Positions 33,816-54,893 of a DNA stretch of 64,000 nt are shown here, one piece after another. The position numbers and the translations under genes were made by a program. Numbering within the stretch: the first letter of the stretch is position 1; each line of letters begins with the position of its first letter. The notes beneath the pieces are model-generated. The model made no database searches and was not told the origin of the DNA. It worked only from the letters and a program-made list of their open reading frames with translations. This DNA comes from an uncultured delta proteobacterium (GTDB taxonomy: Bacteria; Myxococcota_A; Polyangia; Polyangiales; Polyangiaceae), in the NCBI GenBank assembly GCA_963716725.1, contig CAVQUB010000011.1, positions 384,001 through 448,000 of the forward strand, given 5' to 3'.

Positions 33816-34180
33816 CCGGTCCCGGGCCGCGCGTGCGCGTCGAGCTGTTCGAGAGCGAGACGATCGTCGGGCGCGGACGCAAACAGGTCACCTACCTGTT
33901 GCGCGTGAACGACGCCTGGATCTTGGCGAGTGAGCACCCGGGCGCCGTTTCCGAGCGGCTCTCGTCGGGCCCGGGAACGGTCTGGGAGCGTCGCCTCGAG
34001 CTCGATCTACCAGTCGGAGCGCGGCTCTGCCGGGTGGTGAGTACTCCGCTGTCGGAACCCAGCCGTGACGCCCTGGAGTACCTCACCGATGCTCGCCGCG
34101 GACCACGCCGAACCACCCGACGGCGCGAGCTCGTGGTGGATCGACGCGGGGCGCTGGTGGACGCTCCTCCGAGCCGGTGA
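33812..34180 (+). CDS. Hypothetical protein
   Basis: GTG overlaps the upstream stop; host-like codon usage. Confidence 0.6.
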   Translation: MTGPGPRVRVELFESETIVGRGRKQVTYLLRVNDAWILASEHPGAVSERLSSGPGTVWERRLELDLPVGARLCRVVSTPLSEPSRDALEYLTDARRGPRRTTRRRELVVDRRGALVDAPPSR

Positions 34181-34250
34181 CCCGCGATACGCGCGGACTC
34201 CCCGTTGACCTGGTCGCCATCCCTTGCTCTGCTGCTTCGCGGAGGCTCTG

Positions 34251-35795
34251 GTGCGACGTGCGATCCCTATTCTCGCGACCCTGGTGACGCTCACGGCCGC
34301 GAGCGCTTCGCGCGCGTCGACGGCGCTCGAGTACCCCGACAACGGGGTGGCGCAGTTCTCCCGGGGCGGCGCCTGGCTGGCCACCGCCACCGATCCAATC
34401 GCGGGCTACTACAACCCCGCGGCTCTGGCGACGCAGGCCACGAGCTTCAGCATCGGGCTGAACCTCGCCTTCCAGAACGTCTGCTTCGAACGCAAGGGCC
34501 CGGACGGCACGGACATCGGTCCCAGCAAAGGCCTGACCGATCAGGGCATCACCTACGGGGAGGTCTGCAACTCGAACGCGGGGCATCCGAACCTCATCCC
34601 CAACGTCGCCTTCGTGTGGCGCGCCACCGAGCGCCTCGGGATCGGGCTCACCATCGTTCCGCCGTCGTCCTTTGGTCAGCTCGAGTGGCCCGACCTGGTG
34701 GCCATGCCCGAGAACCACTCGTCGGGCCGAACCGCGCCCACGCCCGCGCCGCAGCGCTACCTCTCGCTCTACACCAAGGGCACGATCCTGTTCCCAACCC
34801 TCTCGGTCGGCTACTCGGTCACCGATCGCTTCCACATCGGAGCCGGGTTCGTGGCCGGCATCGCCCTGCTCGAGTTCCGCTCGATGTCGATGGCAAACGT
34901 CGACTCGACAAACCCCTACGACCAATACACCCAGGACAGTCGCAGCCGCGTCCAAGCCCAGGACCTATTCGTGCCGGGTGTGGTCGCCAGCGCGTTGTTC
35001 GAGGCGACCGACCACCTCGACCTCGCCGCCTGGTATCGCTACAGCGACAAGATCCGCGCGAAGGGCGACCTCGAGGTGACGGCGCAGTATTACGACTCCG
35101 CCGGGCGTCGCAACCCAAAGGCCGAGGTCACCAAGAGCAAGGATCAGAAGGGTGCTGACGCCGCCAAGGTCGTGCTCACCCTGCCCATGGAAGCGCGCAT
35201 CGGCGCTCGCTGGCACATGCCGCTCGCAGCGCCCACCGGCCTCGATGCGGAGCGCTTCCGGAAGGACCGCCACCGCGTACGCGATCCCCTTCGGGACGAT
35301 CTCTACGATCTCGAACTCGATCTGACCTGGGCCAACAACGGCAGCGCCGAGGCCACCGAGATCCGCTTCCCGGAGGGCATCTTCGTGGCGAACCTCGGCA
35401 CCGTTCCGACCAATGCCGATCGCCCGACAGGCTGGCGTGACTCCTTCGGCGCGCGCCTGGGCATGCAGTACAACGCGATCCGAAACCGGATGGGCCTGCG
35501 TACCGGAACCTGGGTCGAGAGCAACGCCACGAAGGAGGAATACCTCTCGGTGACGGGGGTACCGGCGCTCCGCGGCGGGGTCGCGGTCGGCATGGTCCTG
35601 CGCATCCAGGGTGTGGATCTCGAGACCGGCTACCAGCACATCTGGAACGCGGGGCTCGACAACGAGGGCAACGGGAAGCAACGCGCCATCGCCGCGAGCG
35701 GCTCGCCGGACAGCCGCTCGCACCACGCCGTCAACGGCGGGAGCGTGACGCAGCACGCGAACGTATTCTCGCTCGGCGCCGTCGCGCGCTTCTAG
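34251..35795 (+). CDS. FadL/OmpP1-like outer-membrane transporter
   Basis: Signal peptide, SRGGAWLATATDPIAGYYNPAAL N-terminal motif, beta-strand pattern, terminal Phe. Confidence 0.8.
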   Translation: MRRAIPILATLVTLTAASASRASTALEYPDNGVAQFSRGGAWLATATDPIAGYYNPAALATQATSFSIGLNLAFQNVCFERKGPDGTDIGPSKGLTDQGITYGEVCNSNAGHPNLIPNVAFVWRATERLGIGLTIVPPSSFGQLEWPDLVAMPENHSSGRTAPTPAPQRYLSLYTKGTILFPTLSVGYSVTDRFHIGAGFVAGIALLEFRSMSMANVDSTNPYDQYTQDSRSRVQAQDLFVPGVVASALFEATDHLDLAAWYRYSDKIRAKGDLEVTAQYYDSAGRRNPKAEVTKSKDQKGADAAKVVLTLPMEARIGARWHMPLAAPTGLDAERFRKDRHRVRDPLRDDLYDLELDLTWANNGSAEATEIRFPEGIFVANLGTVPTNADRPTGWRDSFGARLGMQYNAIRNRMGLRTGTWVESNATKEEYLSVTGVPALRGGVAVGMVLRIQGVDLETGYQHIWNAGLDNEGNGKQRAIAASGSPDSRSHHAVNGGSVTQHANVFSLGAVARF

Positions 35796-35916
35796 TCCGC
35801 GGCCGGTCACCGACCTCGCGGGCAAAGACGCGGGGGACGCGGGGAACCCAGGGAAGATCCTCCTGGTTCGGGCACGCTCTCCTGCCTCAGATCCGCAGGA
35901 AAAGGGCGCGAAGCAC

Positions 35917-35957
35917 AAAATAAAACAAGGGCGATCTGGTCACCCAGATCGCCCTTG
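35917..35957 (-). terminator. Intrinsic terminator, minus strand
   Basis: Perfect 14-bp stem CAAGGGCGATCTGG (35926-35939)/CCAGATCGCCCTTG (35944-35957), GUGA loop, then UUUUAUUUU on the minus strand. Confidence 0.9.
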
Positions 35958-37855
35958 GGAAGTCACCGTTTACCGGTGGTGGGCGGGACACGCCCCGAGC
36001 ATGTTTCAGCTTTTGCTATCACCGGTCTCCACTCCGCCGTTTGCATACGATCGGGGTGGCATCATCGCCTCAATGGGGGCTCCGCAAGACTCAGGCCCGT
36101 CGATTTCGCGGTCGCTTGGCCTGGTGCGGTGACAGGGTTGTTAGCCGCTGTCAGCTTCGGCGAAGAGTATTGTCGGCGCATCGCTCAGTCGGCCGGCTTT
36201 CGCCCACCGGAGCCTCGACGTGAACCGCGTTGTCGCGGTCACGGATGCTGACCCCCCGCGTCTCATCAACTGGAGGAGCCTTCACCAACGCATACCCTGC
36301 CTCTGATGTTCTCTGTCACCGCATGGGCACGGTCAGCAAGACCTCAGGCTCTCACTACCCGCTGGCTCGACCCGGCCGCCACTCGCTCGCGCGAGTACTC
36401 TTCCGAACCTGCATTGACCCTCACGGTCAGAACCGCGCTCGCGCCGAACGGTTTAAGAACAGCGCTGCACACGATCCAGAACACCTATCGTCGTATCTGC
36501 GACGCACGAGGTTTTACCCTCATGCTCAAAACCACCCGCTCAGTTGTTCACTTGAGCTGGTGACTCCGCGTACCCGTTCGCCCATCCGCTTTTCCGCGAC
36601 GCTCCGTCAAGAGCACCTCGGTTCCGGTCGAGCTATGCCGATTGTGACTCGTGCCTTTCGGCAGCCGAGTCCATCAGGCCAGAGATACGTCCGATCGACG
36701 ACTGCAATCCCACATTTCAAAAACGAGCACTCGTTGCTTCGCGTGGTTACCGAGTCGCTTTCCAGGGTTGCCCCTGGTGCGCTGCGATGAGTGAGGCGGT
36801 TCACGCCGCGTTCACTCGCTTCGGGCGGCGCTACCACCAGCGCAGCGAGTATTCTCCCCTCGCCGCTCCGTTGGAGCTCCGACTCCTCTGACGCTCCCGT
36901 CACCACCCAGACGTCACCGGCTCATTAGGCCAGCTTCACCCAGGCGACCGAGATCACTTCCACTGCCGCGATGCGTGAATTGCGACAGCTTTCGTGACCC
37001 GGAGCACCTTCCTCTGGCTAGGAGCCCTTCTCGGGCTCTTTGTTGGTCCCCGCGCTCGGCAGTGCCGAACGTCGACTCCAACTCACACCGTCCCTTCGCC
37101 CGCGGTGGAGATCATCCACCCTGAGCTAGGCCCCGTCCGCTCACCTCAGCCACAACCGAGGCTCGCCTCTCGAGCCAGACGCCGCTCACCAGATTCTGCA
37201 ACATTTCAACGCGAAACCCGAGCACACCAACGAACGACGTTTCCTCACCCGACGAGCCGCTTTCGCACCCTTCGTTGCCCGACACCGACCGAAGTCGACC
37301 CGAGCTGTGAGCAGCGCAGCACCGGAGAGCCTTTCTCTCGAACGACCCTCTGGCTGGCACCCCGAAGGCGCCTGCCGCACCGGCCGAGACACGGGGAGTT
37401 GGCTATGCGTGCTGCGACGCAGAGGCCCACTCAGCCACGTCTCGAACACCCCGCTGTCGTTGACTCACCGCTGGTCGAGCCTGAAGAGGACTGGAGCAGT
37501 CAGCTGGCCAACCGAGGCCTCCAATCTCACCGCCCGCGCGAACGGGTGGGGTGGTCCTGAAAGCCGGGGTGCCTTCGAATCTCGAGAAAGCCAAGACAGA
37601 GGCGCTACTCCGTCTGGCCGGGATGCCCCAATTTCCGAAGAATAGCTGGCCACGCGAGGTGGGCAGCTTGGGGTCACCCTCACGCCTTTTTCACCAGTCG
37701 TCTCGGTAGGCCTTTGACGGGTCCACTCGAGGCGACGGGCGGCGGCGTCCATCCACAGGCAGGCTTGCGACCCGCACGGCAGACAGTGCGCCACGGCGCT
37801 TCTGAAATTCTCTACGAACCGGTCGTTCGCCGGCAGATGTGCCGCGAACTTCCAA
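35917..37855 (-). ncRNA. Candidate large (about 1.9 kb) structured non-coding RNA, unassigned class; 5' end approximate
   Basis: No ORF with host codon bias; many hairpins with GNRA or C(UUCG)G loops on the minus strand; long-range complementary segments; ends at an oriented terminator. Confidence 0.7.
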
Positions 37856-37918
37856 GGACCATTAATGCTTCAGGTCGACTCTCTAAGCAACAAGAAAATC
37901 AGCGGAGATGCGATTTTA

Positions 37919-37950
37919 TTATCCACACAGTCAGTCACAGGTAATCCACA
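37919..37950 (+). promoter_or_regulatory. DnaA-box-like sites in an AT-rich intergenic segment
   Basis: TTATCCACA 37919-37927 (perfect), TCAGTCACA 37931-37939 (weak), TAATCCACA 37942-37950 (8/9). Confidence 0.5.
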
Positions 37951-38294
37951 GGCCCCCTTGCGGGGCCGAGCAGCATCTGATCGACGGCAGCTAACCGTTC
38001 GTATTCACGAAGTTATCCGGAGAGCAACGAGCTGGAAGCCCGCCCGGCGCGCACAAGAACATGCGTTGACTACTTCATTTGAATACCGATGCTATTCTCG
38101 TTTGAAATCCCGGGTCTCTTCTTCGACTGAAAGAGGGGGTAGGTGAATCCACTACCCAAGCGCCGCCCTCGGCCCGACGCCCCTTCGCGGGGCGCGGTCG
38201 CTCAGTCCGAGATCCCGGCGCACCCCAACCCACTTTGGTGACCGAGAGGCCGCGATTCGGTGGTACACCGCTGTTTCCGCGAGGAGGCTCCCTG

Positions 38295-38516
38295 GTGCCG
38301 CTGAACGTCGACACGCTGAAATCCGAGCGCGATAAGCTCAAAGAAGGTCTCCGCGAAATCGAAGCCGATCAGCGCAAGCTCGAGGCGGAGATCAAGGCGC
38401 TGCGCCAGCGCGAGCTCCAAGCCAAACGTGAGATCGAGGCGCTCAACGTGCTGCTCGAAATCCACGACGCCCGCGAGCCGAGCAAGAAGGCCCCGCCCAA
38501 GAAGCCGGAGGAGTGA
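38295..38516 (+). CDS. Small coiled-coil protein (73 aa)
   Basis: GAGGAGG at 38281-38287, GTG at 38295; heptad pattern LKSERDKLKEGLREIEADQRKLEAEIKALRQRE. Confidence 0.8.
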   Translation: MPLNVDTLKSERDKLKEGLREIEADQRKLEAEIKALRQRELQAKREIEALNVLLEIHDAREPSKKAPPKKPEE

Positions 38517-40200
38517 CGCCCGAGCTCACTCGGGCGCTGGCAGCGCGCGGCAAGTGGCCCTCGGTGATCCGAATCGAACCGAGGCGCGAGGCGGAACCGC
38601 CGGGAGCGAAGCTGTCGACGAGCGGAGCGAGCCCTTCGACGCCCAGCGCAGCCGGCGGCTGGAGCGCCGTCCCCGCCGCCGCCAGCGACTCGACGTGGAG
38701 CGTCTGCGTCGGAAACGCGAAGCGAACCCCGAGGCTCTCGGCCAAGCGCAGGACTTCGAGCAAGATGTCGTGTCGGGTGACCAGCTCGTCGGACCATTCC
38801 GCAGCCTCGACGTAGCAGTGAAGTGTGACGTCGAGGGACGAGTTGGCGAGCCGACTCAGGTGCACCTCGAACTTGTCTTTGCGGGTCCGCTCCGACGCCC
38901 AGACGATAGCGCGGATCCCCTCGACAAAGGCCTCGATGCGCTCGACCGGGGTGTCGTAGGTCACGGAAAAAGTCTCCAGTATTCGGCGGTGTCGCCGCGC
39001 GCCCATGTTCTCGATCTTCGCCTCCGCCAGCCGGGCGTTGGGCAAGGTGACCAACGAGTCACCCAGAGTCCGGATGCGCGACGAGCGGAAGCCCACCTCT
39101 TCCACACGCCCCTCGACGTCCTCGACCTTCACGAGGTCGCCAATGCGAAAGGGTCGGTCGATGAAGATCATGACGCTCGCGAAGAAGTTCGCGATGGTGT
39201 CCTTGGCGGCCAACGCCATGGCGAGACCACCAATCCCAAGCCCCGCCAACAGCGAGCCAACGTCCACGTTCAGGTTCTGGAGCAGGACCAGCACCCCGAC
39301 GATAACCAAGACGATCTTCATTGAAGTGCGCACCAGCGGCACCATCTGGTCGTCGAGCCCCGATCCGGTCTGCTCGGCGCGCGTCGCCAGGTGTGCAGCC
39401 AACACGTCCACGAGTCGGTAGAGCGCGAGCACCAAGGCGACGATCACGCTGGCACGCAGCGCCGTCGAGAGCCCGAGTGCCACACCGAGCGGCAGCCCGA
39501 GCTGGGGATACGCGAGCCGCAACGTCAGCACTGCGAAGAGCATCGCACCGGGAGTCGCGAAAACCTTCACCAACTCTGCCGTCAGCCGCGCCCCTCGCCG
39601 CTCGGCGAAACCCGCCAGCCGGTGCTTCAGCACGAAGCGAATCAGCTGCCTGAGCACCAGCGCGACCAGCACGATCAGGGCCAAAGCCAGCCCCTGCCAG
39701 AGCTCCATGCCGAGCATTCGACCCCGGAGCCAGGGCGGCAAACGGCTCACGATGCCGTGCTTGCCCATCAGCAGTGAGTCTTCGTAGATCTCGTCTATGG
39801 CATCGAGGCTTGCCCGCGACCACCGCCACATGCCGTCGGCTTGCCTTTCAACCAAGATGTTGGGGAACGCCCCATGGGGCGCGATGGACGCTCGCCGCGT
39901 GTCGGGGTTCACCCAGCCCGGCTCGTCGCTAAAACGCGCGGTGTCGATCTTCAACGCGCGCGCTGCGTAGACGGTCTTGACGCGCTGCGCGCTCTCGCGG
40001 AGCTCGCTGGTCGAGCGTCCGGCGCGATCGAGACAGCGTGTGGCCTTGGCGGGGTTGTGGTGTTCCTCCGACAGCCAGCCGAACAACGAATCCACCGCGT
40101 CACGCGGAGACTTGCAGCTGGCTGGGGGCTCGGCAGACACGCTGAGCGGCGCAAGGACGGCTAGCAAAAACAGGACGAGACAATGGTGGATATGACGCAC
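38443..40200 (-). CDS. MscS family mechanosensitive ion channel
   Basis: LLAGLGIGGLAMALAAKDTIANFF, DRPFRIGD, GRVEEVGFRSSRIRT, FAFPTQTL. Confidence 0.93.
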   Translation of the reverse strand: MRHIHHCLVLFLLAVLAPLSVSAEPPASCKSPRDAVDSLFGWLSEEHHNPAKATRCLDRAGRSTSELRESAQRVKTVYAARALKIDTARFSDEPGWVNPDTRRASIAPHGAFPNILVERQADGMWRWSRASLDAIDEIYEDSLLMGKHGIVSRLPPWLRGRMLGMELWQGLALALIVLVALVLRQLIRFVLKHRLAGFAERRGARLTAELVKVFATPGAMLFAVLTLRLAYPQLGLPLGVALGLSTALRASVIVALVLALYRLVDVLAAHLATRAEQTGSGLDDQMVPLVRTSMKIVLVIVGVLVLLQNLNVDVGSLLAGLGIGGLAMALAAKDTIANFFASVMIFIDRPFRIGDLVKVEDVEGRVEEVGFRSSRIRTLGDSLVTLPNARLAEAKIENMGARRHRRILETFSVTYDTPVERIEAFVEGIRAIVWASERTRKDKFEVHLSRLANSSLDVTLHCYVEAAEWSDELVTRHDILLEVLRLAESLGVRFAFPTQTLHVESLAAAGTALQPPAALGVEGLAPLVDSFAPGGSASRLGSIRITEGHLPRAASARVSSGVTPPASWAGPSCSARGRRGFRAAR

Positions 40201-40254: not shown

Positions 40255-40662
40255 TCAGAGCTTGGTCTTGCCCAGGGCCAGAATGGCGGCAAGCTCAGGG
40301 TCCGAGACGGGCACGACCGAGAGCCGCCCGCGGCGAACCAGGCCGAATTCGGCGAAGCGCGCGTCGGCCTTGATGGCAGCGAGGGTCACCGGCTCGACGA
40401 TGGGCCCGAGCGGGGCCAGGTCGATGGCAACCCAGGTGGTATCCCCCGGATCCGGGTACGCGGCCCGCGTGACCTTTGCCAACCCCACGACGCGACGCTC
40501 GTCGCCCGTATGGTAGACGAGGACGAGATCGCCTTTCTGGGTCGAACGCAGGTGGTTCTTCGCCGCGTGATTGCGGATGCCGTCCCAGACGGTCTTCTTG
40601 TCGCGCAGGAGATCGGCGAAGCAATATGTGCCCGGCTCGGTCTTGAGCAGCCAGGTTGCCAT
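40255..40662 (-). CDS. EVE domain-containing protein
   Basis: WLLKTEP...WDGIRNHAAKNHL...GDLVLVYH...RLSVVPV. Confidence 0.92.
   Translation of the reverse strand: MATWLLKTEPGTYCFADLLRDKKTVWDGIRNHAAKNHLRSTQKGDLVLVYHTGDERRVVGLAKVTRAAYPDPGDTTWVAIDLAPLGPIVEPVTLAAIKADARFAEFGLVRRGRLSVVPVSDPELAAILALGKTKL

Positions 40663-54817: not shown

Positions 54818-54893
<76 letters not shown>

Follow-up and report, generated by a model that had tools for sequence, protein, structure and literature searches.

We describe here a gene for a very large structured RNA, found in a window of 64,000 nucleotides (nt; the whole stretch of DNA analysed) from an uncultured delta proteobacterium of the Polyangiaceae (assembly GCA_963716725.1, contig CAVQUB010000011.1). 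The gene occupies positions 35917-37853 on the minus strand, about 1.94 kb, with a predicted start near G37853 and an end in the T run that follows its terminator. Its product is almost certainly a real structured non-coding RNA (ncRNA) belonging to a new family, and a previously undescribed RNA family spread across the order Polyangiales is the best explanation of the observations set out below. Our overall reading, to which we give a probability of about 0.6, is that the gene stands alone in a single copy and encodes a stable, abundant and trans-acting RNA, which would serve as a scaffold and whose synthesis would be set by DnaA. The molecule appears to represent a new class of bacterial RNA that exceeds in size all known ones except ribosomal RNA (rRNA); to our knowledge, the other large structured RNAs of bacteria are hundreds of nucleotides long.

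Comparison with relatives provides the decisive support. A full-length homolog is present in all six other genomes of the genus, with 88, 88, 87, 82, 81 and 72% identity, and four other genera of the family show short colinear matches to the stretch. In the seven-way alignment of the genus, conservation sets in abruptly some 100 nt ahead of the RNA, in the region of the boxes and promoter described below, and stops at the terminal T run, while the flanks outside this span fail to align in several of the genomes. The gene thus has sharp conservation borders, within which the genus homologs measure 1934-1946 nt, and an RNA-library contig covers 35958-37842. From these seven sequences RNAalifold predicted 701 pairs, of which the 566 in helices of at least 6 pairs were kept. 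Over these 566 pairs 94.9% of the alignment cells are canonical, as against 39.5-43.4% in controls whose partners were slid by 1-3 columns. Changes on both sides of a pair were observed in 123 pairs, whereas shuffled alignments gave 53 (standard deviation 5), with none of 500 reaching 123, and the slid controls gave 20-30; the covariation score is likewise 0.264, compared with 0.182 in the shuffles and 0.06-0.08 in the slid controls. The structure is therefore conserved by compensatory changes beyond the controls, as expected of a structured ncRNA, and the initial annotation, which had made covariation among homologs a condition for its RNA gene, is borne out on this point.

Since the genus structure derives in part from covariation and from only seven relatives, it was tested on independent genera. 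For this we used 24 sequences from 12 other genera, which had played no part in deriving the structure and were aligned by sequence only (E-INS-i in mafft; the 25-sequence alignment has 3175 columns). On the same 566 pairs these sequences are canonical in 67.6% of cells, as opposed to 38.7-44.6% in the slid controls, and the 139 long-range pairs do better still, with 74.3% against 35.7-45.5%. The helices that close the domains reach a canonical fraction of 0.88-0.99 in these genera. Within the helices there are 713 G-U cells and 58 A-C cells, an asymmetry which indicates that the minus strand is the sense strand. Together with the terminator and the conserved upstream region, this count is what we infer the strand from.

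The RNA is built of three homologous domains arranged round a central junction, each closed by a long-range helix, and the 5' end is paired with the 3' end in a terminal helix. The 5' strand of this terminal helix (GGAAGUUCGC; 37844-37853, minus strand) pairs with 35958-35966, in the GGUGACUUCC region that lies just before the terminator; its 9 pairs are invariant in the genus, and in other genera the pairing GGAAGU/ACUUCC is replaced by UGAAGU/ACUUCA. Domain 1 (37226-37843; RNA positions 13-630) is closed by a helix of positions 22-40 with 613-630. Domain 2 (36727-37225; RNA positions 631-1129) is closed by positions 631-637 with 1123-1129, a helix that is 0.99 canonical in the other genera, and domain 3 (36060-36726; RNA positions 1130-1796) by positions 1130-1147 with 1777-1791, all on the minus strand. 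The most conserved part is the junction of domains 2 and 3 at 36656-36744 (GGGUGCUCG...UUGCAG...). Domain 3 contains a further conserved core at 36244-36334, with the succession GACA..CGUCAGAGG..GGCUCCUCCAG..CGCGGGGGGUC hairpin. The core served as the source of covariance model R1 and the junction as that of model R2, both used in the searches described below.

That the three domains are homologous emerges from profile searches, in which a profile of one domain was compared with 25 sequences of another at E <= 0.01. The domain 1 profile recovered 11 of 25 domain 2 sequences (best E = 5e-9) and the reciprocal search 10 of 25 domain 1 sequences (best E = 1.5e-6). Likewise, the domain 2 profile matched 8 of 25 domain 3 sequences (best E = 3.5e-6) and the domain 3 profile 14 of 25 domain 2 sequences (best E = 1.4e-5). 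Between the outer domains, the domain 3 profile found 2 of 25 domain 1 sequences (best E = 2.2e-4) and the domain 1 profile 0 of 25 domain 3 sequences, with no E value to report. Reversed-sequence controls gave 0 of 25 in all six comparisons. The domain-to-domain matches are colinear and the branch topologies alike, and the domains carry shared motifs at matching offsets: GUGCUCG...UUGCAGAA at the domain start, GGAAGGCRYC about 220-260 nt further in, and GACA...CGUCAGAGG later. This homology suggests that a module of about 500-650 nt was tandemly triplicated as the RNA grew, and such an origin of the triplicated architecture appears very probable from the sequence comparisons.

Downstream of domain 3, a 3' tail domain (35967-36059, minus strand) forms two hairpins and carries the nearly invariant GAUGAUGCC. 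This motif (window 35967-36070, RNA positions about 1787-1798) resembles a sheared G-A core, of the kink-turn or C/D type, and is a candidate protein-binding site. The gene ends in an intrinsic terminator at 35917-35957, with a 14-base-pair (bp) stem at 35926-35957, a GUGA loop and then a T run to 35917; two pairs of its stem show changes on both sides within the genus. A minus-strand terminator at this place had been called in the initial annotation, and it proves to be the strongest of 5 terminator-like sites in 35000-39000. All 31 homologs examined close with a strong hairpin, capped by a GNRA-type loop and followed by a T run, so that the RNA has an intrinsic terminator of its own, as a stand-alone ncRNA gene should.

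GC content is 0.585-0.655 within the region as against 0.67-0.70 in the flanks, and the plus strand is C-rich (GC skew to -0.25), the minus strand G-rich. Open reading frames (ORFs) of up to 188 amino acids can be drawn in the region, and on this ground one might suspect a decayed or unusual protein gene, or a small conserved ORF as the real function. Against this, no ORF in 35917-37855 has a GC content at third codon positions (GC3) above 0.80, the bias of the host, whose flanking genes have GC3 values of 0.81-0.88; both the low GC content and the want of such an ORF had been remarked on at the outset. Further, of 245 gap runs in the seven-way alignment 230 are of 1-2 nt and just 8 have a length divisible by 3, with the RNA length held at 1934-1946 nt throughout. 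The fraction of variable columns is nearly the same in each codon phase (0.436/0.441/0.447), with no period-3 power in the seven-genome alignment, and no frame beyond 44 codons is open in all seven sequences. The retention of length in spite of 1-2-nt indels, the lack of phase bias and the lack of a long shared frame indicate that this is neither a protein gene nor a recent pseudogene, in line with the coding check proposed for it. As the helices are moreover kept by compensatory changes, we consider a coding function hardly credible.

The suspicion of an RNA gene had originally come from hairpins, and all eight that were initially listed are present on the minus strand: TGCC-GAAA-GGCA at 36652-36663 and the others at 36762-36777, 36195-36204, 37286-37297, 37356-37372, 37022-37038, 36415-36429 and 36504-36525. 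In the case of 36415-36429, RNAalifold places the segment in a longer-range helix, and the genus alignment fits both pairings. Hairpins that have a stem of at least 4 bp and a GNRA or UUCG cap occur 7 times on the minus strand and 0 times on the plus strand; after dinucleotide shuffling the average is 2.25 (standard deviation 1.47), and 4 of 500 shuffles reach 7. By itself, this enrichment is modest.

Upstream of the RNA lie two motifs resembling DnaA boxes. The proximal one (TGTGGATAA; 37919-37927, minus strand) matches in 9 of 9 positions the complement of the consensus TTATCCACA; more generally, we take TGTGGAYAA to be the complement of the DnaA-box consensus TTATCCACA/TTGTCCACA. The distal one (TGTGGATTA; 37942-37950, minus strand), about 95 nt upstream of the RNA start, matches TGTGGATAA in 8 of 9 positions. 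It is kept in all seven genomes of the genus, and most other genera have a box at -83/-84 or -95. The 64-kb window has 3 box matches with at most 1 mismatch, of which 2 are the ones upstream of the RNA, and none falls inside the gene. Across relatives, 31 of 31 loci carry an upstream box with no more than 1 mismatch, at about -70 to -110 of the start and usually at -70 to -74, with a second box usually one or two helical turns farther upstream. Boxes are likewise found in 15 of 20 further loci, other families included; of the remaining five, two have boxes on closer look, one is cut at its end and two are false matches. Of the metagenome loci whose upstream sequence extends for 93 nt or more, 25 of 25 have them.

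Between the boxes and the RNA, a putative -35 element (TTGCTT, 37885-37890, minus strand) follows a T run, an arrangement of which the TTGC after the T run is conserved across genera. A putative -10 element (ATTAAT, 37861-37866, minus strand), 18 nt after the -35, is conserved in the genus and takes a CATAA-type form in other genera. This layout of boxes, A/T-rich tract, -35, 18-nt spacer and -10 points to a likely start near G37853. The T run, TTGC, spacer and ATTAAT/CATAA element keep a constant spacing from the 5' motif. Sites fitting the DnaA-box consensus thus stand at conserved positions, as would be expected of a DnaA-regulated promoter, and we lean towards the view that synthesis of the RNA is controlled by DnaA. 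Farther upstream of the boxes, a stretch at 38030-38130 (minus strand) is A/T-rich (GC about 0.55) and carries three TCAAA-type repeats that are position-conserved in the seven genus genomes; it possibly represents another regulatory site or an UP-like element.

The same boxes invite a different explanation, in which the RNA or its locus acts in replication control and the scaffold reading is wrong. In Escherichia coli, loci of the datA/DARS type titrate or recharge DnaA. The boxes could do the same here, or the RNA could act on DnaA or the replisome. What speaks for this is that the upstream feature best conserved across the order is a set of two or three boxes on the same strand, spaced by 11-12 or 23 bp, and that strict TTRTCCACA boxes are rare, with 16 in the 7.9-Mb genome compared with about 33 expected from composition, the proximal box being one of them. 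However, the covariation reveals selection on a fold of about 1.9 kb and not on the boxes alone, there are no boxes inside the gene, and the locus is far from dnaA in 4 of 5 genomes, at distances of 0.7-3.2 Mb. We hence regard a role in replication control as unlikely. A link to the origin was also considered and rejected, as dnaA is distant in those four genomes and on another contig than the RNA gene in the window's own genome. In the fifth, G095, the RNA (C2:431436-433614) and dnaA (C2:449243) are about 16 kb apart.

The strict box at dnaA itself has the same extended CCTGTGGAYAAC context as the box of the RNA gene, and no other site in the genome shows the RNA's promoter layout. In this same genome (G000), boxes that are paired or inverted are found at the dnaA locus (C5:62093) and at C9:326750. 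Two further matches, C22:4164 and C22:6151, sit in A/T-rich sequence unlike the 68% GC of the genome, and contig C22 is perhaps of foreign origin or a contaminant from binning (genome contamination 3.9%).

Public sequencing runs indicate that the RNA is made. The stretch was found in 20 of 24 listed runs, of which 7 are RNA libraries from 4 studies of wastewater or activated sludge. These seven contain 0.39-0.84 of the sampled words, and two of them have fewer than 2 million letters of contigs. We aligned the contigs of four RNA libraries (X8, X12, X18 and X19) to window positions 34000-40000. X8 yielded a single contig of 1885 nt spanning 35958-37842 with 6 differences and X12 a single one of 1813 nt spanning 35994-37805, so that both lie inside the predicted gene, as a discrete transcript would; X18 and X19 gave pieces within the same span, some of them from close relatives. 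Of the transcription claim made for the initial annotation, the part that stands is that RNA-library contigs cover the gene; the minus strand was assigned by the arguments given above. The contigs give no cover at 34000-35808, at 38020-40000 and over the terminator hairpin (35926-35957), gaps that we do not use as evidence for silence of the neighbours or trimming of the 3' end, and contig depths (e.g. 292.7 in X8) cannot rank genes. In the metagenome collection, nine contigs of 1.19-2.05 kb have their start no more than 46 nt ahead of the 5' motif, and for seven the distance is 11 nt or less; these look as assembled transcripts would.

The contig ends bear on the idea that the RNA is a large ribozyme, with the conserved unpaired nucleotides of the junctions as its active site, reacting on itself or in trans. 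In X18 an adapter abuts positions 35962 and 37843. Along with the ends of the X8 contig, this is a weak hint at the ends of the molecule: in two studies the contigs stop or meet adapter within 1-4 nt of each other (37842/37843 and 35958/35962), inside the predicted primary transcript, which might weakly hint at processing. As a matter of general knowledge, the size, the multi-domain fold, the long-range closing helices and the invariant unpaired junction blocks are also as in large natural ribozymes. Loss of coverage at transcript ends would nevertheless explain the contig ends equally well, no Rfam ribozyme or intron matches the RNA, the gene is single-copy and not mobile, and it has no conserved exon-like flanks. 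Catalysis therefore appears to us an improbable account.

We next consider the distribution of the RNA. Scanning its invariant 5' motif over 185,579 species genomes returned 65 loci, of which 26 are this RNA, in records titled Polyangiaceae, Polyangiales, Myxococcales or 'delta proteobacterium' metagenome-assembled genomes. The other 39 are unrelated: 31 encode ...KFGGTSV, which we take to be an aspartokinase-type N-terminus, and 8 are chance matches. In the 31 coding loci (L021, L022, L024, L025 and 27 further ones) a 20-nt variant of the motif with G at the variable place recurs across many phyla on account of the encoded peptide, a coding coincidence and not homology. Within the family, the exact motif is present in 31 of 383 genomes and 13 of 89 genera, where the RNA measures 1680-2256 nt. 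Model R1 detects it more widely: of the 151 family genomes sampled it matches 59, and of the 89 genera 39. Model R2 matches 42 of the 151, and 41 of these are also R1-positive, with the R2 match colinear on the same contig, 330-500 nt upstream on the same strand. The union of the two models comes to 60 of the 151 (Polyangiaceae by record titles). In three genomes (G019 and G199 of this sample, and G049 of the order-level sample below) there are two R1 matches on different contigs, possibly a second copy, assembly redundancy or contamination.

In an order-level sample R1 matched 31 of 151 genomes. The matches in families f2, f5, f11, f14, f18 and f23, and weaker ones in f9, keep the upstream boxes, promoter, 5' end and terminator, and the RNA is thus present in at least seven further families of the order. 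Those in f7 and f22 are false, as they fall within high-GC3 ORFs. The f9 form is only about 1.09 kb long (L112:1133-2225; also in L111) and sets the lower end of an overall length range of 1.09-2.26 kb. It has the same closing helix, terminator and upstream box, with domain 1 cut to about 130 nt and the cores of domains 2 and 3 still recognisable, and could be a natural minimal version that defines the core. R1 found nothing in 126 sampled genomes of the phylum outside the order, and viral contigs yielded no match to the RNA. Of 48 metagenome matches, 14 proved unrelated.

Could the RNA then be a divergent member of a known family, such as an rRNA fragment, a group II intron, OLE, GOLLD or ROOL, or the RNA of a phage or mobile element? 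Long structured bacterial RNAs do include the phage-borne GOLLD and ROOL, according to the part of PMC12286853 consulted. Rfam 15 at the gathering score, however, detects only a transfer RNA (tRNA) at 54818-54890 in the whole window and nothing in the RNA region; a search of that region with E values up to 10 gave a single chance match (E = 0.72), and five other diverse homologs gave 0 matches. The prediction that no full-length Rfam match would be found has thus held. The RNA also lacks viral matches, exists in a single copy in its own 7.9-Mb genome, is inherited across the order with partial local synteny, and is not flanked by an integrase or repeats in the window. With the tests for any Rfam 15 family and for a group II intron or mobile RNA element both negative, derivation from a known family or mobile element is very improbable. 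Full-text literature searches, with subscription journals and supplementary files outside their coverage, found no description of the RNA, and term look-ups in PMC11109978, PMC8632094 and PMC13082091 returned no mention of myxobacteria.

Comparison with the established large RNAs helps to place this one. The abstracts consulted describe OLE as a highly structured RNA of about 600 nt from Bacillota with no established biochemical function, and it is reported to form higher-order assemblies in the part of PMC12286853 consulted. As far as these sources go, the two are alike in being chromosomal, well-conserved large ncRNAs with invariant sequence blocks. The Polyangiales RNA differs in lacking any sequence or model match to OLE, in being about 3 times longer, in belonging to another phylum and in having no adjacent partner genes; the parts of the sources compared mention neither an internal triplication nor a DnaA-box promoter for OLE. 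GOLLD and ROOL are encoded by phages and prophages, often near tRNA islands, and build multi-copy symmetric nanocages, again by the portion of PMC12286853 consulted. Like the Polyangiales RNA they are very large, ornate bacterial RNAs, and the function of both is open. The Polyangiales RNA, by contrast, is without viral matches and is a single-copy chromosomal gene among ordinary cellular neighbours, and so does not qualify as phage-borne. It is more than twice as long as GOLLD, for which the consulted part of the source speaks of 'many members exceeding 800 nucleotides' (PMC12286853), so that the greater length initially claimed for it is upheld, and its symmetry, if any, would lie within one chain.

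With 16S and 23S rRNA it shares a kilobase size, paired 5' and 3' ends, domains closed by long-range helices, a length that varies through peripheral hairpins and presence in RNA libraries. It differs in having no match to rRNA models, in being confined to one order, in its single copy outside the rRNA operons and in domains that are mutually paralogous. The 6S, RNase P, tmRNA and SRP RNAs resemble it in having their own promoter (putative here) and terminator, in acting in trans, in vertical inheritance and in unrelated neighbours, whereas the Polyangiales RNA is 5-10 times larger, matches none of their models and is lineage-restricted.

We propose that the RNA would act in trans as a large scaffold, either in an RNA-protein particle or as an RNA-only assembly of pseudo-three-fold shape, offering three related surfaces, and that it would not be a regulator of a neighbouring gene. 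DnaA, or another reader of TGTGGAYAA, would set its synthesis by the replication or growth state of the cell. The symmetric cages of GOLLD and ROOL make a symmetric architecture a reasonable idea for an RNA of three repeats. By this analogy, a scaffold rather than a catalyst is what we tentatively suggest, at somewhat less than even odds. A more specific version is that a single chain whose three paralogous domains each measure about 600 nt adopts the shape of a pseudo-three-fold particle, as a linked counterpart of the ROOL and GOLLD cages or as a new ribonucleoprotein machine, and would be a lineage-wide housekeeping component of the Polyangiales coupled to DnaA; this we hold to be speculative and rather doubtful.

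Several points count against our overall reading. The main covariation test draws on seven related sequences, and RNAalifold had itself made partial use of covariation in deriving the structure tested. Alignments of wider scope, being sequence-based, are poor in peripheral hairpins of variable length, and several local helices are only 0.4-0.6 canonical in the other genera. The link between domains 1 and 3 is weak (2/25 and 0/25), so that the homology of the three rests mainly on domain 2 as a bridge. With regard to the promoter, a consensus scan of 35000-39000 called no sigma-70-type site, which leaves position and conservation as its sole grounds; another protein may read the box motif; and dnaA lies anywhere from 16 kb to 3.2 Mb from the RNA gene in the five genomes checked, and on a separate contig in the window's own. 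The strand, exact ends and level of the transcript are inferred, as the contigs cannot show them. R1 and R2 do not find the RNA in 91 of the 151 sampled family genomes, several genera scoring 0 of 3, and there it is either dispensable or diverged past the models. When Pfam was run on 80 flanking ORFs of 20 loci, no protein gene proved consistently adjacent, and no partner or pathway is indicated; the scaffold function itself is a guess by analogy.

If the pseudo-three-fold, DnaA-coupled reading were true, only rRNA would surpass this molecule in size among functional bacterial RNAs, and it would be the first giant RNA with a link to the cell cycle. Known large RNAs such as OLE and GOLLD each opened new biology or structural principles, and the Polyangiales RNA is 2-3 times larger and conserved in an order of ecologically important predatory and social bacteria. 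Its domain triplication is a direct record of how a large RNA grew, the natural size series from 1.09 to 2.26 kb defines a minimal core, and its promoter element may link RNA synthesis to DnaA. One carrier has a complete genome of 12.3 Mb (G338), and the RNA is a good target for cryo-electron microscopy and genetics.

In the window, the RNA gene lies between a gene for an MscS-type channel (38443-40200) upstream on the same strand and a convergent gene for a FadL-type outer-membrane protein (34224-35795) downstream. An EVE-domain protein gene two genes upstream (40255-40662, minus strand; Pfam E = 7.5e-36) is not a conserved neighbour elsewhere. The closest upstream minus-strand coding sequence had been put about 2.5 kb away; its end at 38443 is indeed about 2.5 kb from the terminator, and about 0.6 kb from the RNA start. 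Given this same-strand MscS-type gene ending at 38443, the RNA could conceivably be a long 5' or 3' untranslated region, or else an antisense or cis-regulatory RNA of a neighbour. It has, however, its own conserved upstream region, its terminator faces a convergent gene and the neighbours differ among the 20 loci, and we deem such an origin most improbable. The description of the locus in the initial annotation as a stand-alone chromosomal RNA gene agrees instead with its own upstream region and terminator, its single copy and the lack of a conserved neighbour or viral match. Local synteny is patchy: among the 20 loci a FadL-like gene is adjacent in 4, an MscS gene in 3, a REC-EAL gene in 3 and a CitMHS gene in 2.

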